From the NCBI GenBank assembly GCA_964459675.1, contig CAYWNP010000002.1, positions 4,665-48,966 on the forward strand: a DNA stretch of 44,302 nt, in the 5' to 3' direction. Under the pieces are notes generated by a model. The model did no database searches. It was not told where the DNA came from and saw only the letters and a program-made list of their open reading frames with translations. Below are positions 3,615 through 35,600 of the stretch, one piece after another. The DNA is from an uncultured Akkermansia sp. GTDB lineage: Bacteria > Verrucomicrobiota > Kiritimatiellia > RFP12 > UBA1067. The number at the start of each line of letters is the position of its first letter. Within the stretch, counting starts at the first letter, position 1. Both the position numbers and the translations under genes were made by a program.

Positions 3615-4792
3615 TCTCACGTGCGATTCAGAAACAGATGGAGAACGCCTCGTGGATTCGGCGCATGTTCGAGAAGGGCATGGAGCTGAAGAAGCAGTTT
3701 GGCGCAGACAAGGTCTTTGACTTCAGCCTTGGAAATCCTGACATTCCGCCGCCCGCGCGGGCACGCGAAGCATTGTTGGCGATTACGGAACAGGCCGTGA
3801 AGCCGATGGGATTGGGCTATTGTCCGAATGCCGGACTCCCCGCATTTCGCGAAGCGCTTGCCGCGTGGTTGACAAAACAGCAGCAGGTGCCGCTGCAGAG
3901 CGCGCATATCGTTGTGACCTGTGGCGCCGCAGGTGCCTTGACCTCCTTCTTCCGCGCTGTGCTCGAACCCGGCGATGAAGTGCTCTCGCCTGCTCCCTGC
4001 TTTGTCGAGTATGGCGCCTATTGCGGACACTTCGGGGGCGTCCTGAAAACAGTCCCCTCGATGCCGCCCTCCTTTCAGCCGGATCTCGCCGGACTCGAGG
4101 CAGCGATTACGGAGAAGACGCGCGTCCTGATTATTAATTCCCCGAACAATCCGACCGGATGCGTCTACTCGCAAGAGACCTTGACGAAGTTGGGTCAGCT
4201 TGTGGAACGCGTCAATGCGACACGCGAGCGTCCGCTCTTTCTGGTCAGCGATGAGCCCTATCGTTTTCTCGCGTACGATGATGTGACGATTCCGCCCGTC
4301 CTTCCTGTCTCTCCCTTTGCCGTGGTCATGGGCTCCTTTTCAAAAAGCTTGTCCTTGGCTGGCGAGCGCATTGGCTACATTGCCGTAAACCCCGCCTTGC
4401 CGGATGTCGCCTTGCTGGTAAATGCAGTGACCATGACCAATCGCACATTGGGCTTTGTCAATGCGCCGATTTTGGGACAGCGGTTGGCCATGGCGCTGTT
4501 GGATGAGGGCGTGGACCTCTCGATCTATGATCGCCGCCGCAAGGCCATGGCCCAAGTGCTCACAGATGCCGGCATCCATTTTTCCATGCCGCAAGGGGCC
4601 TTCTATTTCTTCCCGAAGGCACCAGGGGGCGATGACCAAGCCTTTGTGCAGGCGCTCCTGCAATACAATGTGCTGGCTGTGCCAGGTACCGGCTTCGGTT
4701 TCCCCGGCTACTTCCGCCTGAGCTTCAGCGTCGAAGACAAAGTCATCGCCGGCTCAGCCTCTGGCTTTGCCGCCGCTGCAAAGCAGTTTTAA
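3605..4792 (+). CDS. PLP-dependent aminotransferase, class I/II (Asp/Ala aminotransferase-like)
   Basis: Fold-type I aminotransferase blocks are INSPNNPTG and GSFSKSLSLAGERIGY (PLP-lysine region). The start overlaps the hisS end by 10 nt. Confidence 0.85.
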   Translation: MQVISRAIQKQMENASWIRRMFEKGMELKKQFGADKVFDFSLGNPDIPPPARAREALLAITEQAVKPMGLGYCPNAGLPAFREALAAWLTKQQQVPLQSAHIVVTCGAAGALTSFFRAVLEPGDEVLSPAPCFVEYGAYCGHFGGVLKTVPSMPPSFQPDLAGLEAAITEKTRVLIINSPNNPTGCVYSQETLTKLGQLVERVNATRERPLFLVSDEPYRFLAYDDVTIPPVLPVSPFAVVMGSFSKSLSLAGERIGYIAVNPALPDVALLVNAVTMTNRTLGFVNAPILGQRLAMALLDEGVDLSIYDRRRKAMAQVLTDAGIHFSMPQGAFYFFPKAPGGDDQAFVQALLQYNVLAVPGTGFGFPGYFRLSFSVEDKVIAGSASGFAAAAKQF

Positions 4793-4822
4793 GGAGTCTT
4801 ATGGCATCTCCTCGTTTCCCGT

Positions 4823-4843
4823 GGGTTCAGGGTTCAGGGTTCA
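4823..4843. repeat. Tandem heptamer array GGGTTCA x3
   Basis: Three perfect units, read directly. Confidence 0.85.
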
Positions 4844-4883
4844 GCTTGGACGTTCAATGTGCCGTAGTCGTATCCGCGAAGGT

Positions 4884-4904
4884 GGATGTTGGATGTTCGA
4901 TGTT
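4884..4904. repeat. Tandem heptamer array GGATGTT x3
   Basis: The units are GGATGTT, GGATGTT and CGATGTT. Reverse-complement words (AACATCGAA x2) occur at 26347-26369. Confidence 0.85.
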
Positions 4905-4935
4905 CTCTTATATTCGTGCCGTTCGCGCAATTCGG

Positions 4936-6294
4936 ATGCTAAAAAATTACCCCCTTCTTTTTTCTTTTTTCTTTTTTCTTTCTTCTTTCCCCGCTTCCGC
5001 CGTCGACTTCACCGGTCCGACCGAGTGGGAGACGGTTCAGACCAACGTGGTCAAGACGTGGCAGGCTCAGCAAGTCGCAGCGACCTCCGCGAATGTGCGC
5101 GTCTGGGCGGGCGTCATTGCTGATCGCGAAAAACGCGAAGTGCGTCTCCTGGCCGAGGCGGTCGGTCATAACCTGGATACCACGATCGAATTTCTGATTG
5201 CAGCGCCACAGAGCAATCGTGCCTATGAGTCAGCCATGATGAGTGTGGCAAAGCCCTCTGACATTGTGCGTGCCCTGGAGTGGATCGGCCTTCCACGAGG
5301 AACCGTGATCAACGGACGTCAGTTCTGTTTCTGGCCCAAGGGCGAACGTGTTTCAGGGACCATCCGTCGTCTCAGCGATAAGCCCCTGTCGGCGCGGCCG
5401 TTGCAATCCGTGATCAAGGATGTCTCCAAGGAAGGGCCCCTGTATGGCGAAGCCGGGCTTGTCTTTACCGGGGGCACGTGGAAGGAGAATACCTGCAGCG
5501 TGGACACCGAGCAGCCTTGCTCCGTGATCGCCCTCTACAATGAAGAGGAGACGCTCTTGGATCTTCCCTTTCTCGCCTCCAAGGGTGTGGCGTATGGTCG
5601 GTCGGTCTTGGCGGAAAAGATGAACTATGGCGAAGTGCTGGAGGTGGTGATCATGCCGATGCTTCTGCCGGATGGCGCCTTGCGCACGACGCACCTTTTT
5701 CTGACTGCACATCCTTCGGAGATAAAGGAGACGACACTGGTTTGTGCCGACAATAAAGGGAAGGTCATTAAGAAGGGGACGTTAACAGAGGTGGTGACGT
5801 GGTTGAAAGCGTTGTCCGATCGTGGCGAAGATCTCTTTGTGACGCTGACCATGTCCGAGGAGATGACTCTGGCGCAGGCGGCTGATCTCGCAAGTCTCTT
5901 TGCATTGTTGGATGGCAAGGGAATCAAATTGTATGGAAAAGAGAAAGCGGGCATCTTTCCTCGCGCCTTTTTGCCACAAGAGGCATGGCGCAAACGGGAA
6001 GGGCGCACACCGCAGCCCTTTGAAGTCTATCTGCTCGGCGATACGAATCGGCTGACCTACATTGAGGAGGACTGGAGCGGAGAGGGGCTGGATCCCAAGC
6101 TCTCGCCAAAGGATTATCCCTTTTCTGAGGTGAGCGAATTGCCAGGGCTTGTCAAACGTGTCGGAGACAAGGATAGCAAAAAGGTCGAGCTGCTCTTTGT
6201 CTTCGCCTCTCGCAACACCCCTCTCAAAAAAGTAATGCCCGCCGTCCGCGCCCTCTCCGACCGCCTCCCCCTCGTCTATATTTTCGCCGAGTAA
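4936..6294 (+). CDS. Hypothetical secreted protein (family not recognised)
   Basis: ORF 4801-6294. ATG 4936 gives a Sec-type signal peptide MLKNYPLLFSFFFFLSSFPASA|VD. The 45 codons upstream of it run through tandem-repeat DNA that looks non-coding. Confidence 0.6.
   Translation: MLKNYPLLFSFFFFLSSFPASAVDFTGPTEWETVQTNVVKTWQAQQVAATSANVRVWAGVIADREKREVRLLAEAVGHNLDTTIEFLIAAPQSNRAYESAMMSVAKPSDIVRALEWIGLPRGTVINGRQFCFWPKGERVSGTIRRLSDKPLSARPLQSVIKDVSKEGPLYGEAGLVFTGGTWKENTCSVDTEQPCSVIALYNEEETLLDLPFLASKGVAYGRSVLAEKMNYGEVLEVVIMPMLLPDGALRTTHLFLTAHPSEIKETTLVCADNKGKVIKKGTLTEVVTWLKALSDRGEDLFVTLTMSEEMTLAQAADLASLFALLDGKGIKLYGKEKAGIFPRAFLPQEAWRKREGRTPQPFEVYLLGDTNRLTYIEEDWSGEGLDPKLSPKDYPFSEVSELPGLVKRVGDKDSKKVELLFVFASRNTPLKKVMPAVRALSDRLPLVYIFAE
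4955..4989 (+). repeat. Pyrimidine heptamer array TTCTTT(T/C) x5 inside the signal-peptide coding region
   Basis: TTCTTTT x3 followed by TTCTTTC x2. The array encodes ...LLFSFFFFLSSF... Confidence 0.8.
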
Positions 6295-10069: not shown

Positions 10070-12265
10070 ATGACAACCTTTCACATGCTCCTGCAACAGG
10101 CCTTGGCGCTGAACGCCTCCGACCTCTTCGTCACCGCCACGAAGCCACCCTATTATCGCGTCAAGGGACAGGTCACGCCTGTTGAGGACCCGACCCCCAT
10201 CACGGAAGAGGATCTCTGCGCCTTCCGCCTCTCCGTTCTGGGCGAGGAAAACGAGGCCCTCTATCAACGCAAAGGCACGTATGACACCTCGTTGATGCTG
10301 TCGAAAACGGAGCGCTTCCGTCTGAATTTTTATGCCACGTTGCAGGGCTCTGCTTTTGTCGCGCGTCCGCTGCGTATGGGAGGCGACCTTAATGCGGCTG
10401 CGCTGAACCTGCCGCCCGTCCTGATGGATCTCTGTAATCACGGGCGGGGCCTGATTTTGGTTGTCGGCTCAACGGGTAGCGGAAAGTCCACCACGCTGGC
10501 GGCCATGGTCAATCACATTAACCGGACGGCGAGCAAACACATCCTGACGCTGGAAGACCCCGTCGAGTTTGTTCACGCCGATATTCAATCGTTGATTTCC
10601 CAGCGCGAGATCAATGTGCATGCGGAGAACTTTGTCGAGGCGCTGCGAAGCGGGCTGCGTGAAAATCCGGATGTCATTGTCGTCGGGGAAATGCGCGATA
10701 CGGAGACCATGCAAGTCGCCCTCAACGCCGCGCTCACAGGCCATCTGGTGATTGCGACCGCCCATACCTCGACCGCGATCCAGACGATCGAGCGCATTAT
10801 TACCATGTTCCCTGCGGACGTGCGCAGCCAGATCTCAACGGACCTAGCTCAGGCGTTGGTGGGTGTCGTGGCGCAACGCCTGTTGCCGTCGGCGAAAACA
10901 GCAGGCATGGTTCCGGCCATTGAGGTTCTGTTGACCTCCTCGACCGTCCGCAAGCACATTGAGGACCGCAACTACCTGATGCTGGACGACCTGCTCAGGC
11001 AGACCAGCGTGCCCGGCATGCAAACGTTCTGCCGGGAGCTTTTCCGCCTCTACCAGGCGGGCGAAATCACGCTGGCCGATGCACGGCGCGCGGCCGACAA
11101 CGTCGATGAGTTCGACTTGTTGGTGCGTGGCATGGAGGCCGGCGCGGACACGTTCCGTCAGCACTACGGCGACAAGACCAGCCAAGATGACACGGACACG
11201 CTGGACATGATCGACCTGCTCTCCCTGGCCGCCCACCAACGGGCCAGCGACCTCTTGCTGACGGTCGGCAAACCGCCCACCGTCCGAATCAACGGGGAGT
11301 GGTGCGCCGTCGATTTGCCGCCCTTGTGCGACAGTGACGTGCGCCGTCTCGTCTTGAGCATCATCAACCAGCGCCAGCGTACCGCGCTGGAAGAGAACCG
11401 CGAGCTCGACTTTTCGCTCTCCTTTCTCTTGCCGGGGGAACGCGGAGAAAAAAAGAACAGCCGCTTCCGCGTCAACGTCTTCTATCAGCGGGGCTCCTTG
11501 GGCACTGTTCTGCGCATCGTGAACACGGATATCCCCAAGCCCGAACGCCTCGGAATCCCTCCCCGCGTCATCGAGCTGACGCAGAAGAAACAGGGGCTTG
11601 TCATTATCGTCGGGCCGACTGGCAGCGGAAAGTCCACCACACTGGCCAGCCTGATTGACGCCATCAATCATACGCGCCCCGCGCACATCATCACCATCGA
11701 AGACCCGGTCGAGTTCACCTACACCAATGACCAGTCGATTATCGAGCAGCGGGAGGTTCACTCCGACACCCTTTCTTTTGCGACCGCCTTGAAACACGCC
11801 ATGCGTCAAGCGCCCGATATCATCATGGTCGGCGAAATGCGCGATACGGCGACCATGGCGGCCGCGCTGACCGCTTCAGAAACCGGGCATTTGGTCTTTG
11901 CGACCCTTCACACAAACACGGCACCGCAAACCATCGACCGCATCATCGACTCGTTTTCGGCGGAGCATCAGAACCAGATCCGCCAACAACTGGCGTCCGC
12001 GTTGATCGGAATCGTCTCGCAGCGCCTCATACCCCGCCAGGACGGAAAAGGGCGCATTGCGGCGTTTGAGGTGATGATCGCCACGCCGCCGGTCTGTGCG
12101 CTGATCCGCGACAACAAAACGTTCCAGCTGCAATCCATTATGGAGACCAGCCAGAAGGACGGCATGTTGACGCTCGAATACTACATGAACGCCTTGGCTC
12201 AACGCGGGCTGATCGCCCAGGAAGAGATGGCAAAATATCTGACTGAGGCTAAGAAATTTGGCTAG
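10070..12265 (+). CDS. Tandem-duplicated PilT-family (type IV pilus retraction-type) ATPase, two complete modules in one polypeptide
   Basis: Both halves carry Walker A (GSTGSGKST / GPTGSGKST), Asp box (LEDPVEF / IEDPVEF), Walker B (VVGEMRD / MVGEMRD) and His box (TGHLVIATAHT / TGHLVFATLHT). Only the second half keeps a canonical ALIRDNK motif. 731 aa is about twice a normal PilT. Confidence 0.85.
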   Translation: MTTFHMLLQQALALNASDLFVTATKPPYYRVKGQVTPVEDPTPITEEDLCAFRLSVLGEENEALYQRKGTYDTSLMLSKTERFRLNFYATLQGSAFVARPLRMGGDLNAAALNLPPVLMDLCNHGRGLILVVGSTGSGKSTTLAAMVNHINRTASKHILTLEDPVEFVHADIQSLISQREINVHAENFVEALRSGLRENPDVIVVGEMRDTETMQVALNAALTGHLVIATAHTSTAIQTIERIITMFPADVRSQISTDLAQALVGVVAQRLLPSAKTAGMVPAIEVLLTSSTVRKHIEDRNYLMLDDLLRQTSVPGMQTFCRELFRLYQAGEITLADARRAADNVDEFDLLVRGMEAGADTFRQHYGDKTSQDDTDTLDMIDLLSLAAHQRASDLLLTVGKPPTVRINGEWCAVDLPPLCDSDVRRLVLSIINQRQRTALEENRELDFSLSFLLPGERGEKKNSRFRVNVFYQRGSLGTVLRIVNTDIPKPERLGIPPRVIELTQKKQGLVIIVGPTGSGKSTTLASLIDAINHTRPAHIITIEDPVEFTYTNDQSIIEQREVHSDTLSFATALKHAMRQAPDIIMVGEMRDTATMAAALTASETGHLVFATLHTNTAPQTIDRIIDSFSAEHQNQIRQQLASALIGIVSQRLIPRQDGKGRIAAFEVMIATPPVCALIRDNKTFQLQSIMETSQKDGMLTLEYYMNALAQRGLIAQEEMAKYLTEAKKFG

Positions 12266-15222
12266 GGAAGGACTTCGGCAATGCGCGCCTTTGCTTGATG
12301 CGAGACCCAGATCGGTTCAGAGCGCAACGGTTTGAAGGAGGTCAGCGGGCAGCGCTCTCCAGCGGGCATGGCTGCGGCTTCGGGCGTATGTTGATAGTCG
12401 TAGACCGCGCCGCTCTTCATCGTGCCGCAGGTCTCGGCAGGATCGGACACGAAGACGAACGCGTAGTGCGCCGTGCCGTTCGGCGGATTGGTGTCGCAGA
12501 GGGTTGAACGCTCGGTGCGTCCAATAAGCGTGGTCTCATCGGGTTTAAAATTCGCTGGGGTGCCACGGTGGACTTCTGTGATCAATCCGATCATGCGGGC
12601 GGAAGACTCCCAGTTCAGACGGACAAAGCCATTGACGTCATCGGCTGTCTTAACTTCGGGTAACGGAACAGGCAAGGCCTGCGGCAGGATCTGGCGCGCA
12701 CGTCCAGCCATGATGCCGCCGCCAATGAGGTCAGCATGAGGCATGTCAATGCGCGGCTGGGCAAGGAGCTCTGTCCGTCCGGCGCGAATTATTGCGAGCA
12801 TCTTCTGATAGTGCACATCGTTTGTCGACGTCATCGAGGCAACGGGCTTGCCCTCTGCGGGCCAGCGTGTCGGCCAGACTTGCGTCGGGAACTTATCGAG
12901 ATCCAGAACACTGTGCGCATAACCAAAGCCATAAAAGACGCCACGCCGCGAGAAGGTGGAGTCCACCTTGCGCTCCCGACAGAGGGCTAAACCAAAGCCC
13001 CCTTTCGCCGCAAAGGATTGCGGCAACGACGCGCGCAGAATAATGCTCATCTCAGGCTTATCAAAGTTGATCCAGTTATCAAAACGCTTGATCGCGCCAC
13101 TCTTGTCCGCATGACAGGAGACGCAGCCAGCCTCTTTCATGACCCCCATCAACGCTTGGGCGGTCTTAGGATAGGCAGGCATGCGTGGCGGCGCCCGCGT
13201 GTAATCCCACGTGCCGGCATACATCGCATTGGAATCCATCCAGGCGAAGACCAGCTCCTTTTCGGTTGGGGTGAGGAGATCGGAATGGTTTGGTTTGAGC
13301 AGGGTCTCTGCAAGAATCGCCTTTCCGCTGCCGTGCTCATAAGGTCCGAAAACCTTGCAGGACCAGTAGGCTGTACCGTTCATACCGCAGATGCCACCCA
13401 CCAGGTCTGCCGTATACATCTTCTCCCGGCGCGCCGTCAGGTTTTCGTAGGAAATGTTGAAGACTTCTGTCCAGCCTGCTGAAAGATCAAGTCCCTTGGC
13501 CAAGCCTTTCTCGCCACCATGACAACTCACGCACTTCGTGTTCCAGATGGGCTGGATGCGCGTCGTATAGTCCAGCCAGCCCGAGCCCCAGGATTCGGGT
13601 TTCAGCGGCTTCAGTTTGCGATCAGCCAAACGTGGCATGCCCATCGCTTTGGGAGCATACTCATGGCATCCTGAGCAACTGCGTGTCGTGCCAGGGGCGG
13701 CCTGGATGAAGGATCGCATGCTGCGGACCATCTTGTAATCCTTGTCCAGCAACTGAAAGTAGAGCGCACGTCCAGAGGGCGCTTCAAAATAGACTGAGCC
13801 ATCTTCCTCGACAGGGACGATTCCGTGGAAGATCTTAGCACTCCAGGCAAGTGCCGCTGAAATGGAGAAGGTCTGGTTGAATCCATTACCCCCCGCCGTG
13901 CCACTCACACGCGACGTTTCTTCGAGGACGCGCAGCCACTTGATGGTTCCGCGTTTGACGGTCGGCATCGAGATATAAACATCATTGACAAAAAAGGCAC
14001 CCGTGGTCTTCGTGCGATCCGTCATATCGAGCGTTGTGCGTGGCACGGGACGCGGGACCAGCGGAATCGGATTGTGCAGGTCGATCGTCGGATCACTGTG
14101 AACCACAATCTTCTTGCCCGAGCGGTCAATAAGCATCAGAGCGTTTAGCTTGCTCACCCGTGCACCTTTTTTCATCGAAAGAATAAGCGCAGGGGCATTC
14201 GTTTCTTCCGGAGTGCCGCTGTAGAGAACAACATGGGTGTTGAGGGGCCAGGGATCGCAGGAGTTACCACGGTCAAACGTGGGATTGAGCGGATACTCGA
14301 AATTGGTGATCGCCGTCGGGGTATTCTTGCCGACGCGCGTGTCAATCATGGCGATGGTTCCGCGTGGTGGCGCATTGTGCGGCGCGAAGGTCGCGACCAC
14401 GAGTGCATCGTCGCCCGGCACAGGCTTAGCTTGAAGCACAGCTTCCGGGAAGACCATGTTATTAGCAAAGAGCGCGGTCTCATTGCGCCCGTCTGGTAAT
14501 ACGGTCCAAAGGCTTTGAATCACCAGTGCGTTGCGATCCACATATTCCCAGCGGCCAAAGAGAATGCGCCCGTCTGGCAATACGCACGGGTCGAACTCCG
14601 TGACATTGTTCACCGAGATGGTGTGAATATCACTGCCGTCCGTATGCATCACATGCAGGATAGCCACGCCATTGTTCGCGCACGGGACGAGTCCACTGTA
14701 GCGCGTGGAGGTAAAGAGGATGCGTCCATCTGGCAGGTAACACGGCTTCACATCGTGATGACCGCCGCCACTGCCCTTGTACGGATTACCGTTAGCGTCT
14801 AAGTGAGTGACCTGACGCAGGCCGGTACCATCCACATTGATTTCATAGATGATCGAGTTCCCCTTCGGCTGACCCTTGAAGCAGAAGAGGAGTTTCTTTG
14901 CATCATATGAAAGCGACGGATCAAAATAGATGCCCTCGCCCAGCGTGTTCGTGGTGGTGGCGTCAATGATGGTGCGGATACGCTGCTTCTCCTGCGACTC
15001 GGCAGGATTCTCCAAGACATAGATGCCCCCGCCTGGATGCCACTGATAAAAGGTGTCGTAAATATGCAGCCCTTGGTAATTAAAACGCTTTGTAAAGAGA
15101 ATGGGCGCATTCAGCAAGGCAGGGTCAGCGATCAGCCCGCCAGAAGTTTCCCCTTCTCCCCGGCAGAGTGTGGCTGTTCCTAAAAATAGAATCATCCAGC
15201 GTACAAAACATTTCCCCTGCAT
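12262..15222 (-). CDS. Secreted PD40/TolB-like beta-propeller protein fused to a tri-haem cytochrome c region (HzsA-middle-domain-like architecture)
   Basis: Signal peptide MQGKCFVRWMILFLGTATLC. PD40-like strings are YLPDGRILFTSTR, VLPDGRILFGRWE and TVLPDGRNE. There are three CxxCH motifs (CSGCH, CVSCH, CVSCH). 986 aa. Confidence 0.75.
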   Translation of the reverse strand: MQGKCFVRWMILFLGTATLCRGEGETSGGLIADPALLNAPILFTKRFNYQGLHIYDTFYQWHPGGGIYVLENPAESQEKQRIRTIIDATTTNTLGEGIYFDPSLSYDAKKLLFCFKGQPKGNSIIYEINVDGTGLRQVTHLDANGNPYKGSGGGHHDVKPCYLPDGRILFTSTRYSGLVPCANNGVAILHVMHTDGSDIHTISVNNVTEFDPCVLPDGRILFGRWEYVDRNALVIQSLWTVLPDGRNETALFANNMVFPEAVLQAKPVPGDDALVVATFAPHNAPPRGTIAMIDTRVGKNTPTAITNFEYPLNPTFDRGNSCDPWPLNTHVVLYSGTPEETNAPALILSMKKGARVSKLNALMLIDRSGKKIVVHSDPTIDLHNPIPLVPRPVPRTTLDMTDRTKTTGAFFVNDVYISMPTVKRGTIKWLRVLEETSRVSGTAGGNGFNQTFSISAALAWSAKIFHGIVPVEEDGSVYFEAPSGRALYFQLLDKDYKMVRSMRSFIQAAPGTTRSCSGCHEYAPKAMGMPRLADRKLKPLKPESWGSGWLDYTTRIQPIWNTKCVSCHGGEKGLAKGLDLSAGWTEVFNISYENLTARREKMYTADLVGGICGMNGTAYWSCKVFGPYEHGSGKAILAETLLKPNHSDLLTPTEKELVFAWMDSNAMYAGTWDYTRAPPRMPAYPKTAQALMGVMKEAGCVSCHADKSGAIKRFDNWINFDKPEMSIILRASLPQSFAAKGGFGLALCRERKVDSTFSRRGVFYGFGYAHSVLDLDKFPTQVWPTRWPAEGKPVASMTSTNDVHYQKMLAIIRAGRTELLAQPRIDMPHADLIGGGIMAGRARQILPQALPVPLPEVKTADDVNGFVRLNWESSARMIGLITEVHRGTPANFKPDETTLIGRTERSTLCDTNPPNGTAHYAFVFVSDPAETCGTMKSGAVYDYQHTPEAAAMPAGERCPLTSFKPLRSEPIWVSHQAKARIAEVLP

Positions 15223-30784: not shown

Positions 30785-31975
30785 ATGAATGAGCAGGTTA
30801 TTATGATAAAAGGTTCCCGATTGATGGTGGTGTTGGGTGTTGTCGGATTTGTCTCAGCAAGTACGGGCGGCACGTTCACTCAGAAAGAAGCGGATCACAA
30901 ATTGCTACTTGAGCGCGGGATCCTCGAGTGGGATATGGTTTCAAGCCCTCTTCAAAACCTGCGGCCTCTGATGAAAACCCCTGAGGGGGCCATAGAGCCG
31001 AAGTTTAAAGTCTATTATTCCGCCAAAGGCATGGCTCCGATGCTCCTGCTTTTCAAGAGCAGCAAAGAGTCCAAGATGGTTGATCGCGTGATCCTGGATG
31101 AGAACGGGAACAAGGATTTCACGGATGATCCCGTCCTGACCTTGGATTCCGAGCGACCTCTTGATGTGAAATGGAAGACCAAAGGCGGTGAGGCTGCTGA
31201 CTATCGCATCTATCTGGTTAAGTCGAAGCAAGGCACCACCGGGAATATCGCCTTCCTGCCGATGCTCTGGCGAGAGGGGACCGTCACGCTGGAGGGCAAG
31301 ACAGTCCACGCGTTGCTTCAAAACAATCATATGATGGAAAAAACGCTTCTGATTGACAGGGATGGTGACGGGAAGTTCAATTTTAACTCCCGTGACGATC
31401 AGGTCCGTCTCGCATCCACCACGAAGATCAAGGATACCTTTTATAAGACAATCACGGGTCCTGGAGAGGATGATCTGAGTCTTGAGAAATACACTGGGCC
31501 GTTTGCCAAGCTGGAGTTTACGGGTGAACTGGTTGCCGAGTCCAGCAAGGGTGAGGTGGAGGTGGCGTTGTATGGTATAGAGCCAACAACGAACAGAACG
31601 CCTCCCAGTTTCTTTTCTGTAAAAACAGCAGTTACGAATCAGCCGATTGTGATCCCGGCAGGCGAATACACGATTCGCAATGCGCACATCGCTACGGGAG
31701 GAGAGAAAAGTAAGTCTATCGGCTTCCGTCTGGATAAAAAGATTGTCCTCTCGCCGGAGCAGGTGACCAAGATTGTCTTGGACAATCCCAAGGCTGAGTT
31801 AGCGGTGACCCAGAAGGACCGCAAATTGACGGTCAATCGGAAAGTCATCTCTACGGGCGATCAGGGTGTTACTTATTCATTGGGTCGCGACAAGGAGCCT
31901 CTCGTTGTGGATGTGGTTGAACCGGCAGATCAAAACAAGGTGCTTATTGGCCGAAAAAATATGGAGTATGGCTGA
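30785..31975 (+). CDS. Hypothetical secreted beta-rich protein; may read through UGA 31973-31975 to TAA 32096-32098
   Basis: The signal/anchor is GSRLMVVLGVVGFVSASTGG. No family was recognised. The ORF ends ...NMEYG-TGA and continues in frame for 40 sense codons (see the SECIS-like feature and finding). Confidence 0.6.
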   Translation: MNEQVIMIKGSRLMVVLGVVGFVSASTGGTFTQKEADHKLLLERGILEWDMVSSPLQNLRPLMKTPEGAIEPKFKVYYSAKGMAPMLLLFKSSKESKMVDRVILDENGNKDFTDDPVLTLDSERPLDVKWKTKGGEAADYRIYLVKSKQGTTGNIAFLPMLWREGTVTLEGKTVHALLQNNHMMEKTLLIDRDGDGKFNFNSRDDQVRLASTTKIKDTFYKTITGPGEDDLSLEKYTGPFAKLEFTGELVAESSKGEVEVALYGIEPTTNRTPPSFFSVKTAVTNQPIVIPAGEYTIRNAHIATGGEKSKSIGFRLDKKIVLSPEQVTKIVLDNPKAELAVTQKDRKLTVNRKVISTGDQGVTYSLGRDKEPLVVDVVEPADQNKVLIGRKNMEYG

Positions 31976-31987
31976 GGAGGCACATGC

Positions 31988-32006
31988 GGATGCTCGGTGA
32001 GCATCC
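31988..32006 (+). other. SECIS-like hairpin (candidate selenocysteine insertion element)
   Basis: GGATGCTC-GGT-GAGCATCC forms a perfect 8-bp stem with a GGU apical loop. The stem starts 12 nt after UGA 31973-31975. This geometry is similar to the minimal bacterial SECIS. Confidence 0.4.
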
Positions 32007-32218
32007 CCTCGGAAATCAAGGCTGGCCAAAAGATCCTGATACGTCTTCAGAAGGGCAGTGATGAGAACCGGCTCGTCAAAGAGTTTATCGTGAAGTAAAA
32101 AGTTTCGTCCCTTCGAAGAAAGTATTCTTCCTTTTATAAGAACGCTGTACTTTTACCGTAGAAAACGTGTAAAATTGCGCTTCTAAAAAGGAAACGACGA
32201 CGATGTCCACGATACCCG

Positions 32219-33280
32219 TTGCTCGCTAAAGAATCTATGCGGTACCTCCAGCAAAGTCTCGCGATCGCAAAGGCGACGGTTGTTGAATCCATTCAGCAGC
32301 CCATCGCCTTCTTAATCGTCGCCTCTGGCATCCTTTCCACCTTGCTGGTCCCCCTCTTTCAGTTCCATCGGTTTAGTGAGGACGGACGTTTGGCGCGTGA
32401 TTCAGGTTTTTCAACCATGATGGTCTTTGGTCTGGCCCTTGCGGTCACGACGGCGGGCCGAGCCGTTGCCGTGGAGATCCGGCGGGGAACCGCTGCGGCC
32501 ATCATCGGTAAACCTGTGGCTCGCTCTCTCTTTGTGGTTTCAAAATGGTTGGGCGTCTGCGGGGTGCTTCTTCTCTTCTGGCTGGGATTGATTGCGGCCA
32601 CGCTCTTAGCGGAACGGGGCTCCTCTCACTTCATGCTGAATGAGGTTTGCACGCATAGCCAGCACGGTGGCGATGATCTCTGCGAAACCTCGGGTTACGT
32701 GATGGACTATCTGACTCTGGGACTGGGAATAGGAGGCGTCTTGGTTGCGCTTCTCTATGCTGCCTCCCAACAGTATTTCAAGCGCCGGCGTTTTGGCGTC
32801 CATGCTTTTGTCGGCATTACCGTCTCCCAGTGGATTGTTGTTGGACTCTGCGGCCTCTATGACCGTACAGGACACCTCCTGTTTCTGCTCAAAGGAAGCC
32901 CCGTCTTTGTCAGTGATTTGGATTGGCGCATTCTTCCTGTTGGAGCCTTGGTTCTCCTGGCGTTGTTGATCTTTGCCGCGCTGGCAACAGCGTTGGCCAC
33001 ACGCTTGCAGACAGGCGCGACGCTGGCGCTCTGCGTGTTGGTTCTTCTGTTGGGACTGACGGGCGATCTCCTGGCTGCACAGACATCCCTTCTCTCAATC
33101 CAAGGCTGGTGTGCAGGCCTCTTGCCAGATCTTCAACACTTCTGGCTCTGTGACGCCTTGGCGCAAGGAGGCAGCCTTTCATGGGGATATGTTGCGGAGG
33201 CAGGGCTTTATGCGTTAAGCTGTTGCACCTTGTTCCTCACAGCGGGATGCCTCTCTTTTGCCAATCGGGATTTAGGATAA
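32219..33280 (+). CDS. ABC-2-type transporter permease-like polytopic membrane protein
   Basis: Multiple hydrophobic helices. It lies immediately upstream of, and is translationally coupled to (TAATG), an ABC ATPase. The start is TTG 32219 or ATG 32237. Confidence 0.6.
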   Translation: MLAKESMRYLQQSLAIAKATVVESIQQPIAFLIVASGILSTLLVPLFQFHRFSEDGRLARDSGFSTMMVFGLALAVTTAGRAVAVEIRRGTAAAIIGKPVARSLFVVSKWLGVCGVLLLFWLGLIAATLLAERGSSHFMLNEVCTHSQHGGDDLCETSGYVMDYLTLGLGIGGVLVALLYAASQQYFKRRRFGVHAFVGITVSQWIVVGLCGLYDRTGHLLFLLKGSPVFVSDLDWRILPVGALVLLALLIFAALATALATRLQTGATLALCVLVLLLGLTGDLLAAQTSLLSIQGWCAGLLPDLQHFWLCDALAQGGSLSWGYVAEAGLYALSCCTLFLTAGCLSFANRDLG

Positions 33281-34245
33281 TGGAGACTATGAACCACGTC
33301 ATTCAAATAAAGAACCTGGGAAAGACCTTCAAGGACTTTTGGCGCCGGCCTGTCGTCGAGGCTGTGAAGGATTTGAACCTGACCATTCAACAGGGCGAGG
33401 TCTTCGGACTTCTGGGGCCGAATGGCTCCGGCAAAAGCACCACATTGAAGATGATGCTCGGGCTTCTGCGTCCGACGCAGGGAACCATTGAGCTTTTTGA
33501 GGGCTGCGGACCGGAGGATGTCGCGGCCAAAGCGCGGGTGGGATATCTGCCCGAAGTTTCACATCTTCATGAATTTCTGACCCCGCGTGAAACGCTCCTG
33601 TACTATGCCTCTCTTTTTGGTCTTCCACAGGCTGATGCTAAGCGCCGCACAAAGGAACTCTTGCAGATGGTCGGACTCGAGTCTGTCGCCGATCGCGCCG
33701 TCGGAAAATTTTCAAAAGGCATGGCGCGTCGTGTGGGTCTGGCGCAGGCCCTCATTAACGCGCCGGAGTTGCTGATCCTGGATGAACCGACCTCTGGGTT
33801 GGATCCGATCGGTTGTCGCGAAGTCAAGGATCTGGTTCGTCTGTTGGCCAAGAGTGGCGTCACGGTACTGATGACCTCTCACCTGCTGGCAGATGTTGAG
33901 GATGTCTGTGATCGCGTGGCGATTATGAATCGAGGAGAGCTCTGTGCTTACGGTTCCACGCGCGACCTGCTGCGTAATCCCGATGTGGTGCGCTTCTCGA
34001 TCCCTGGGCTCTCGGCTGAAGCTGCCACGGAGATTCGCCATCAACTCGAACAACGCGCGGCACGACCTGTGCATCAAGATTTTCCGGAGATGAGCCTCGA
34101 AGCCTACTTCCTAAAAGTCGTCTCCCCTGAATCGGATAACACAGCCTTTAAGGTGGCACCCTTCCTCGAGAAGCTCCCGGCCTCCCTGGCCGCCGTAGCC
34201 TTGGCGGAGGGGACCGACCTCCGACCTCCGACCTCCGACCTCTGA
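33280..34245 (+). CDS. ABC transporter ATP-binding protein
   Basis: ORF trimmed to ATG 33280, which overlaps the upstream stop. Walker A GPNGSGKST, signature-region FSKGMARRVGLA, and Walker B LLILDEPTSGLD are present. The last ~10 codons and the stop lie in a heptamer repeat. Confidence 0.9.
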   Translation: METMNHVIQIKNLGKTFKDFWRRPVVEAVKDLNLTIQQGEVFGLLGPNGSGKSTTLKMMLGLLRPTQGTIELFEGCGPEDVAAKARVGYLPEVSHLHEFLTPRETLLYYASLFGLPQADAKRRTKELLQMVGLESVADRAVGKFSKGMARRVGLAQALINAPELLILDEPTSGLDPIGCREVKDLVRLLAKSGVTVLMTSHLLADVEDVCDRVAIMNRGELCAYGSTRDLLRNPDVVRFSIPGLSAEAATEIRHQLEQRAARPVHQDFPEMSLEAYFLKVVSPESDNTAFKVAPFLEKLPASLAAVALAEGTDLRPPTSDL

Positions 34246-34250
34246 CCTCT
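34214..34250 (+). repeat. Tandem heptamer array CCGACCT x4 + CTGACCT
   Basis: Read directly. The ABC ATPase stop codon TGA (34243-34245) lies in the variant fifth unit. Confidence 0.85.
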
Positions 34251-34253
34251 GTT

Positions 34254-35600
34254 ATGCACTCCCTCCGTAAAATCTTTGGTATTTTCCTCCTCGCCTTGCG
34301 CGCGTCATTGCGTACCAAGACGGTCTTTGCCTTATTATTGCTGATGGTGACTTGTGTTCTCCTCTTGCCTGCGGTGGTGAAAGGGGATGGCACACCTCAA
34401 GGGGACTGCCAAATCTTGATTCTCTACACACTTGGGTTTTCGTTTGCGCTTCTCTGTCTCTCGACGCTCTGGGCGGCATGTGCGCTCTTTGCGGCAGAGA
34501 TCGACACTCAACTCATTCAGCTCTCGGCTGTGAAGCCGGTGCGTGCCGTGGAGTTCTGGCTGGGCAAATGGTTCGCGCTCTTACTGCTGAATGCGCTCGC
34601 GCTGTCTGCTGTTTATGGTGCTGTTTATGTGCAGCTCCGTTGGAAACAGCGCCAGCCTGGCTGGCGTGAGAGCGTCCAGTTGGTGAGTCGGAGTGTTGTG
34701 CATCCACTATTGCCCACACCACAAGAGGAGGCGCAAGAAACGTATGCGTTCCTGGAGAAACAAAAGGCGCTTCCACAAGGGCTCAGCAAAGGTCAGGTCA
34801 TGCGGGCATTGACGACGAAGGCGCAAGAACGCTATACGATTGTGAATCCAGGAGAGTCGGCCGCTTGGCGCTTCCAGTTGGCGCGGCCGGTTACGATACA
34901 CGAGCGACTCACCGTCCGTATTCGTTTTGATACGGAATACAGCACGCGGACTCAAGTGACCGGGGTTTGTCGGGTCGCCCCGGCTGATTCCCAAGCCAAA
35001 GCTTTGGAGATCCCACTCGATGACTTTTCCCTCCAGGAGATTGAATTTGATCTCGCGTGCGAGGCCTTTCATCGGACACAGGACCTCTCAGCCATCAACC
35101 TGAGCTTCACGCATACGGGCGATCCGACCAAGTCCTCTGCCTTGATGCTGCGCTTTCGCAAGGATGTGGTTGTGTTGACCCAGGGAGGCTCCTTCGAGGC
35201 GAACCTTCTACGTTCAGCCCTTGTCCATTGGAGTGTGCTTGCGTTGCTGGCGGCCTTTGGCCTGACTCTCAGCGCCTGCTTCTCCTTGCCGGTCGCGGTC
35301 TTCACCTCGACGATCCTGTTACTGCTTGTGATGATCGGGACCTCCGTGAACGAGGTGGTCTCAGCCGAAGACGAAAAAGAGTGGTTAAAAAAACCAGGCA
35401 TTCTGGTCTCGCGCGGGGTGAGTGCGATCGCCCAGCATGCGTTGCGGTTCGATCCGCTCGAGGCGGTGGTTAACGGGGAACGAATTGAAAATCAGGCTTT
35501 GCGAGAGCTTCTTCTTTGGAATGTGTTGTTGACCCCGGCCGTTTTTGGGCTCGTGGGCATCCTGATTTTAAGACGCCGTGAACTGGCCGCTGGCGATTGA
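34254..35600 (+). CDS. Membrane protein with a large extracytoplasmic loop, putative second permease/accessory subunit of the ABC system
   Basis: There are N-terminal TM helices, a soluble segment of about 170 aa, and C-terminal TM helices. It is tightly linked to the ATPase (8-nt gap). Confidence 0.6.
   Translation: MHSLRKIFGIFLLALRASLRTKTVFALLLLMVTCVLLLPAVVKGDGTPQGDCQILILYTLGFSFALLCLSTLWAACALFAAEIDTQLIQLSAVKPVRAVEFWLGKWFALLLLNALALSAVYGAVYVQLRWKQRQPGWRESVQLVSRSVVHPLLPTPQEEAQETYAFLEKQKALPQGLSKGQVMRALTTKAQERYTIVNPGESAAWRFQLARPVTIHERLTVRIRFDTEYSTRTQVTGVCRVAPADSQAKALEIPLDDFSLQEIEFDLACEAFHRTQDLSAINLSFTHTGDPTKSSALMLRFRKDVVVLTQGGSFEANLLRSALVHWSVLALLAAFGLTLSACFSLPVAVFTSTILLLLVMIGTSVNEVVSAEDEKEWLKKPGILVSRGVSAIAQHALRFDPLEAVVNGERIENQALRELLLWNVLLTPAVFGLVGILILRRRELAAGD

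Follow-up and report, generated by a model that had tools for sequence, protein, structure and literature searches.

Introduction

Bacterial selenoprotein genes, of which E. coli fdhF is the archetype, carry an in-frame UGA and a stem-loop within the open reading frame (ORF), the bacterial selenocysteine insertion sequence (bSECIS). In the consensus of Zhang and Gladyshev (PMC13188914) the apical loop has 3-9 nt, the upper stem 4-16 bp and the UGA-to-loop distance is 16-37 nt; the folding energy is -7.5 kcal/mol or lower, a G lies within the first two loop positions and the apex is commonly N1-G-[G/U]-N-N2, with N1 and N2 paired (PMC13188914, Fig. 2). Here we analyse a gene on a 44,302-nucleotide stretch of DNA from an uncultured Akkermansia sp. 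(contig CAYWNP010000002.1; the whole stretch is called the window), in which an ORF ends on a UGA and the same frame then stays open for a further 40 codons. Like the bSECIS genes, this gene combines an in-frame UGA with a stem-loop inside the ORF (8-bp stem, -11.4 kcal/mol), a loop that starts G-G/U at 20 nt from the UGA, synonymous sites held by the hairpin and a nearby Cys (U-x-x-x-C, where U is selenocysteine). Unlike them, it belongs to a family in which no Cys homologue was found and in which UGA forms vastly outnumber the others instead of being a minority; its product is an exported tandem immunoglobulin (Ig)-like beta-sandwich, not a thioredoxin-like protein or a metalloenzyme, and no selenocysteine machinery is seen in the window or the fetched loci.

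Complete selenocysteine machinery occurs in some Planctomycetes, and homologues with Gly in place of selenocysteine have been reported there (PMC4807772). Two candidates from that work, ASPIC/UnbV FG-GAP and FmdB (S9 Table), resemble the present gene: they come from the Planctomycetes-Verrucomicrobia-Chlamydiae (PVC) group, the UGA splits an annotated gene, a SECIS element is predicted and the nearest sense homologues have Gly, not Cys. They are nevertheless different families, as we find no ASPIC, UnbV or FG-GAP Pfam match here and the present family is absent from PMC4807772. A second comparison is with DUF1573 (PF07610), which has a U-G-C motif, and with the other 'hypothetical' families of the selenoprotein catalogue. 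These too are uncharacterised and have selenocysteine beside Gly and Cys, and some of their members come from related environmental bacteria. The present protein differs in giving no PF07610 or NCBIfam selenoprotein match and in having the motif U-G-G-T-C, not U-G-C.

A UGA can also be passed by simple read-through. In the A1 protein of phage Q-beta this occurs at a low level, Trp is inserted and no SECIS-type hairpin is needed. The A1 gene shares with the present one an in-frame UGA and a functional C-terminal extension, but the present family has a conserved SelB-type hairpin and a flanking motif that co-varies with the UGA.

We find that the UGA of this gene is very probably decoded in frame rather than terminating translation, and we put the probability that it is read as selenocysteine, directed by the conserved hairpin, at roughly 0.65.

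Results

The gene and its in-frame UGA

The first ORF encodes 396 aa (30785..31975, forward strand) and closes on ...GRKNMEYG-TGA, the TGA being at 31973-31975. The features of the gene are as follows.

30785..31972, forward strand: upstream part of the ORF, 396 codons, all-beta body (ORF list and homologues; no Pfam or NCBIfam match)
30803..30868, boundaries approximate, forward strand: predicted signal peptide of the Sec (export) type, MIKGSRLMVVLGVVGFVSAS followed by TGG (sequence reading; helix 4-17 in the model)
31958..32006, forward strand: block frozen at the nucleotide level in close clades, AAT ATG GAG TAT GGC TGA GGA GGC ACN TGY GGA TGC TCG GTG AGC ATC
31973..31975, forward strand: recoded in-frame UGA, proposed selenocysteine-397 (TGA in 11/11 loci with DNA)
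31976..32095, forward strand: 40-codon extension, GGTCGCSVSIPSEIKAGQKILIRLQKGSDENRLVKEFIVK, C-terminal part of the last beta-domain, GGTCGCSVSIP...KEFIVK
31985..31987, forward strand: Cys +4 (TGC), conserved partner in U-G-G-T-C (all UGA forms and 6/8 sense forms)
31988..32006, forward strand: bSECIS-like hairpin, 8-bp stem, GGU apical loop (C-GGU-G)
31991..31993, forward strand: Cys +6 (TGC), clade-specific (Cys in close clades)
32096..32098, forward strand: terminator TAA of the 437-codon gene

A sequence-only reading of this DNA had proposed a new selenoprotein here, on the grounds of the ORF end, the 40-codon open frame to TAA 32096-32098, a GGU-capped hairpin of 8 bp that begins 12 nt past the UGA (31988-32006), and a higher third-position G/C content in the extension (27/40) than in a competing +2-frame mini-ORF (12/25). 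All are exactly where and what it said they were, the G/C counts on recount.

The real start is likely to be ATG 30803, judged by the match to the homologue P0001 (MIKGSRL...). The protein had also been described as secreted, and the signal peptide predicted by eye at 30803..30868 agrees with export. Several distant homologues appear, again by eye, to have lipoprotein-type signal peptides.

Conservation of the UGA and of the extension

Homologues were sought among 5.8 billion and 1.84 billion proteins, and UGA-type loci with DNA comprise the window and L005, L006, L009, L011, L012, L013, L014, L015, L016 and L018. The homologous codon is TGA in all 11 loci, at protein identities from 100% down to about 20% (lowest in L018). 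Each of the ten loci readable beyond the junction has both the in-frame extension and the hairpin; L014 ends 11 nt past its TGA, and L006 reaches its contig end after 33 extension codons. Eight complete close-clade loci, the window included, have an extension of exactly 40 codons, which in the seven others reads GGTCGCSVSIP...KEFVV[KQ]; it is longer in L018. Contig scans of genomes and metagenomes found just four loci of the family, and searches of viral contigs and plasmids found no further one.

With the read-through product as query, 23 of 26 close homologues end on ...MEYG and three continue. A profile search of the 1.84 billion representatives with a hidden Markov model gave 60 clusters (50% identity), of which 47 have G-x-[ML]-x-[YF]-G as their very C-terminus and five more a near variant at that place (52/60 in total). 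The rest are four that read through, two N-terminal fragments, a 33-aa mini-ORF (P0074) and P0084, whose match to the family is confined to its N-terminal region. The family is large and uncharacterised, and appears to belong to PVC-group (Planctomycetes-like) bacteria. Had all homologues ended at MEYG with no frame downstream, the extension would have been in doubt; the frame is kept in every readable locus.

Synonymous changes were counted in nine UGA genes aligned by codon. Across codons +11..+40 of the extension, 16 of 18 amino-acid-invariant columns vary synonymously, so the distal extension is translated in frame under purifying selection, as had been proposed from the sequence of the window. 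It is also homologous to the C-termini of the sense forms P0017, P0022, P0027, P0040, P0044 and P0053, in which a sense codon replaces the UGA. Codons -5..+10 behave differently: synonymous variation is found in 2/14 amino-acid-invariant degenerate columns, versus 98/103 elsewhere (Fisher p = 7e-11), and a constraint at the RNA level is therefore laid over the junction. The synonymous sites frozen in close clades at 31958-31972 and 31976-31987 go well beyond what an 8-bp hairpin needs; they vary synonymously in L018.

The internal stop is TGA throughout, whereas the terminal stop differs among homologues (mostly TAA, one TAG, one TGA). Stops of the 32 other window genes are TAA in 16, TAG in 10 and TGA, the rarest, in 6. 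Genome-wide reassignment of UGA was discarded on these grounds: the L016 extension itself ends in TGA, as do the 6/32 window genes, and UGA thus remains a stop in these organisms.

A bSECIS-like hairpin

The hairpin of the window, GGATGCTC/GGT/GAGCATCC, starts 12 nt past the TGA with its loop from 20 nt past it, and its folding energy is -11.4 kcal/mol. With its C-GGU-G apex, 8-bp stem and 20-nt UGA-to-loop distance it lies within every bSECIS limit. Spacing from UGA to hairpin is identical in the UGA loci, the helix is 100% paired across the ten-sequence UGA alignment and two G-C pairs are replaced by compensatory A-U pairs in L018. In sense-codon relatives the hairpin is weaker (-8.5, -4.4 and -3.1 kcal/mol). 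The SECIS-like geometry that had been claimed for the window therefore holds for a conserved element within the bSECIS consensus, L018 missing the energy limit slightly.

Such a hairpin is not rare in itself. Loose bSECIS criteria were passed after 236 of 5361 TGA trinucleotides (4.4%) of the DNA analysed, and the 81-nt region around it is no more stable than shuffled sequence (z = -0.3). Both figures would suit an explanation by chance, in which the UGA is a nonsense mutation in a decaying gene, the open frame beyond it is accidental or the +2-frame mini-ORF is the real gene. We regard this as close to negligible, given a UGA in 11 loci with frame and hairpin in ten, 52/60 representatives that end at the motif and purifying selection on the extension. 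The hairpin alone is not above chance; its conservation lifts it far above chance. The +2-frame mini-ORF was rejected separately: its ATG is lost in L012, L016 and L018, and its frame is broken after eight codons in L012, L013 and L015.

Searches of Rfam gave nothing relevant at the gathering or a permissive threshold. A larger conserved RNA structure was considered and dropped, as the sole addition made by RNAalifold is a small, weak stem around the UGA that shows no covariation. This stem (G UAU GGCU / GGC AC AUGC) puts the UGA in or beside its loop.

A distant relative with the same junction

L018, whose surroundings are planctomycete-like and include DUF1559, encodes P0041 (protein identity about 20%). 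Its junction reads AAC ATG GAA TAC GGC TGA GGC GGG ACC TGC GAA TAC TCG TGG AGT ATT. Between UGA and hairpin the codons are GGC GGG ACC TGC, versus GGA GGC ACA TGC in the window, a difference that is synonymous only. Since NMEYG and GGTC keep the same amino acids while differing synonymously in L018, the codons between UGA and hairpin are translated. The L018 hairpin, GAAUACUC-GUG-GAGUAUUC, again has 8 bp, the same spacing and an apex of C-GUG-G. Pairs 2 and 5 are A-U in L018 versus G-C in the window, with both arms changed; those in the 5' arm replace amino acids (Gly to Glu, Cys to Tyr), whereas those in the 3' arm are synonymous (ATC to ATT, AGC to AGT).

L018 also bears on the idea of a split gene, in which the UGA would be a real stop and the C-terminal ~33 aa would be made by reinitiation at GTG 31997, the two polypeptides then associating. 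GGAGG at 31976-31980 could serve as a Shine-Dalgarno sequence, the GTG at codon +8 is kept in close clades, P0015 has ATG at that position and a 33-aa ORF has been called separately in L011 and as P0074. In L018, however, TGG stands for GTG and GGCGG for GGAGG, and the extension is still conserved. Moreover, the GGTC codons 5' of the GTG differ synonymously while the encoded residues stay the same, the GTG lies within the hairpin, the Shine-Dalgarno spacing would be 16 nt and the sense forms are all single fused polypeptides. We consider a split gene very improbable, and reinitiation at GTG 31997 in particular is ruled out by the loss of GTG and GGAGG in L018 with the extension kept. The separately called 33-aa ORFs, which run from the GTG within the hairpin (L011:1405-1506 and P0074), are annotation artefacts of the missed recoding.

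The L018 frame does not stop after ~45 codons but stays open for 357 codons beyond the UGA (L018:5015-6088). The product would have 756 aa, joining gene 3818-5014 to the next annotated gene in the same frame, whose called start is 5054. Its C-terminal part includes a segment of DUF1559 (SBP_bac_10) that lacks the usual prepilin-type N-terminus. On the opposite strand, immediately upstream of the L018 gene, is an FdhD-NarQ gene.

Sense forms and the motif around the UGA

The codon aligned with the UGA encodes Gly in two of the eight sense forms, Glu in two others and Gln, Thr, Lys or Trp in one each. DNA confirms three of these, GGA and GGT for the two Gly and CAA for Gln, and Gly as an artefact of gene calling with code 25 (UGA = Gly) was thereby discarded. 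The Trp of P0053 is known from protein only and may be a code-4 (UGA = Trp) gene call. JGI sample 3300028549 holds both a Gly (GGT) sense form (L003) and a UGA form (L016), on separate contigs and in separate gene contexts.

The motif N-M-E-Y-G-U-G-G-T-C is strict in UGA forms even at 20% identity and degraded in every sense form, where the flanks read SMEYG-G-RDS, NMGNG-G-GGT, NMNYG-E-GNR, ALSYN-T-DGS, ALECW-K-GQN, RMQYD-W-GGE and LAYG-Q-KNS. The decay of both flank and hairpin in sense forms argues that the UGA position matters and is not neutral. According to the sequence-only reading, homologues that have a sense codon other than Cys and lack a conserved hairpin would point to a simple nonsense mutation or to chance. 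Non-Cys sense codons are what we find, but by far most members of the family retain both hairpin and UGA; since their decay is confined to the sense forms, that reading does not follow. Of the proposed redox-like motif U-GGT-C-G-C, the Cys at +4 holds family-wide, whereas position +6 is Cys in close clades and Tyr in the distant members L018, P0040, P0044 and P0053.

Two family members carry independent fusions to a thioredoxin fold. In P0015 (L004:427-2262) the UGA is replaced by CAA, the Cys residues and hairpin are lost and a C-terminal ResA/TlpA-like domain is gained. In P0084 the family's N-terminal region is joined to a DUF255/DsbH-like CxxC domain. These fusions hint at thiol or selenol redox chemistry.

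Protein structure

The family body matches no Pfam or NCBIfam model. An AlphaFold2 model of P0017, a full-length sense homologue, is confident (pLDDT 82, pTM 0.72) and all-beta. Here the extension forms three confidently predicted strands (402-407, 417-424 and 428-436) that follow strands 375-380 and 387-393, and residue 397 is predicted to lie in a turn within the last beta-domain. A 396-aa annotation would therefore probably be without part of this domain. Foldseek against the PDB returned only generic tandem Ig-like matches with E above 1e-3, and assignment of a function from the fold was given up. A thioredoxin-like fold with U/C-x-x-C was not found in the family body, and is met only in the add-on domains of P0015 and P0084.

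Genomic context

Downstream of the gene lies the following feature.

32219..35600, forward strand: ABC-type cluster of a permease-like protein, an ATPase and a 448-aa membrane protein (Pfam and NCBIfam matches)

The suggested genetic linkage to an ABC-2-type exporter is real for one clade, the cluster being syntenic in the window, L009, L011 and L016, but does not extend to L012, L013, L015 and L018, where it is absent. The longest ORF of the ATPase (33181-34245) overlaps the permease-like ORF (32219-33280) by 100 nt; its real start is probably an internal ATG near 33292 (METMNHV...), by comparison with 300-aa homologues in L009 and L011.

Other window genes encode a sulfatase, a DUF1080 protein, an HZS-alpha/cytochrome c protein and a rubrerythrin, a gene content that suggests an anaerobe of PVC type. 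The HZS-alpha/cytochrome c protein (12262-15222, reverse strand; 986 aa) has a hydrazine-synthase-alpha-like middle domain and a cytochrome c motif; it is PVC-typical and unrelated to the recoding. At 10070-12265 (forward strand) a 731-aa protein has a T2SSE-type secretion ATPase domain and, at about residue 500, a second P-loop region, resembling a tandem ATPase arrangement.

Discussion

A TGA in 11/11 loci, with frame and hairpin kept in 10/10, bears out the proposal that this UGA is a conserved recoding site. As to what is inserted, we prefer selenocysteine because of the SelB-type hairpin, the specificity for UGA, a U-x-x-x-C motif that goes with the UGA, and the fusions to thioredoxin folds. 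The inserted residue would then be selenocysteine, the reader of the hairpin would be SelB, and the site would have a role in redox or chalcogen chemistry. In this mechanism the hairpin inside the ORF (8 bp, C-GGU-G, 12 nt past the UGA) would act as the SECIS and bring SelB-GTP-Sec-tRNA(Sec) to the ribosome with the UGA in the A site. Selenocysteine would land midway through the last beta-domain, in the Gly-rich loop N-M-E-Y-G-U-G-G-T-C, with the conserved Cys four residues on. Such a U...C geometry would permit selenenylsulfide redox chemistry or a ligand-binding site outside the cytoplasm.

Several observations weigh against selenocysteine. As a rule selenoproteins have Cys homologues, which are mostly commoner than the selenocysteine forms. 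The sequence-only reading had suggested looking for Cys aligned to the UGA, and it occurs in none of the eight homologues of read-through length; since there is no Cys homologue, the assignment loses its usual main support. Searches of the 44-kb window and of all fetched loci found no selA, selB, selD or tRNA-Sec. Nor did they yield a second credible selenoprotein gene, the in-frame-TGA/SECIS-like matches there being antisense or in junk frames. Both compensatory pairs of the hairpin come from one distant sequence, L018, whose hairpin at -7.0 kcal/mol falls slightly short of the -7.5 limit while keeping to the others. At least 46 distant clusters are known by their protein ends only, not by DNA, and the tandem Ig-like beta-sandwich is unlike the thioredoxin-like fold of most selenoproteins.

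Some of these points would suit programmed read-through of the UGA independent of SelB, in which the hairpin or its context weakens RF2 and a near-cognate tRNA, typically tRNA-Trp, decodes the codon. Short (396-aa) and long (437-aa) forms would then coexist, and it would not matter which residue stands at 397. The varied residues of the sense forms, which are never Cys and in one case Trp, agree with this, as does the lack of selenocysteine machinery in the window and fetched loci, and the frozen synonymous sites upstream of the UGA in close clades could reflect a need for a termination context. On the other hand, the apex (C-GGU-G, C-GUG-G) and the 20-nt spacing are exactly those of a SelB-type bSECIS, and the Trp of P0053 may stand for a UGA that a gene caller translated with code 4. 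Only in UGA forms are NMEYG and GGTC kept at the protein level, with synonymous differences, which suits an active site around a special residue, and a shortened isoform would, on the structural model, probably miss part of the last beta-domain. We know of no other case in which a family of cellular bacterial genes shows deeply conserved read-through stimulated by a hairpin, which also counts against it; we judge such read-through unlikely, though it is the serious rival to selenocysteine. A related reading, that hairpin-dependent read-through without SelB, or some undescribed form of recoding, operates family-wide in the PVC group and sets the ratio of short to long exported isoforms, keeps some plausibility because there are no Cys homologues, the residue is free in sense forms and no selenocysteine machinery is seen in the window or the fetched loci; we think it rather improbable.

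Selenocysteine thus remains the preferred reading, and would make this a new selenoprotein family. That the family is undescribed, as first supposed, is borne out by the absence of Pfam and NCBIfam matches and by the 119 prokaryotic selenoprotein families catalogued in 2026, which do not include it and among which there is no U-G-G-T-C or U-x-x-x-C entry (PMC13188914, Table 1). Its database entries are essentially all short by ~40 residues (~360 in L018). If the residue is selenocysteine, the family would be large, with about 60 clusters at 50% identity that are nearly all UGA forms, and an unusual set: exported or lipoprotein-anchored, of a non-thioredoxin all-beta fold and with no Cys-containing counterpart. 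Lack of Cys forms hides such a family from searches for Sec/Cys pairs, the source of most catalogue entries, and it would lie beyond the reach of these methods, in a blind spot of existing surveys. Cys would apparently be unable to replace selenocysteine at this site, which bears on why selenocysteine is retained at all.

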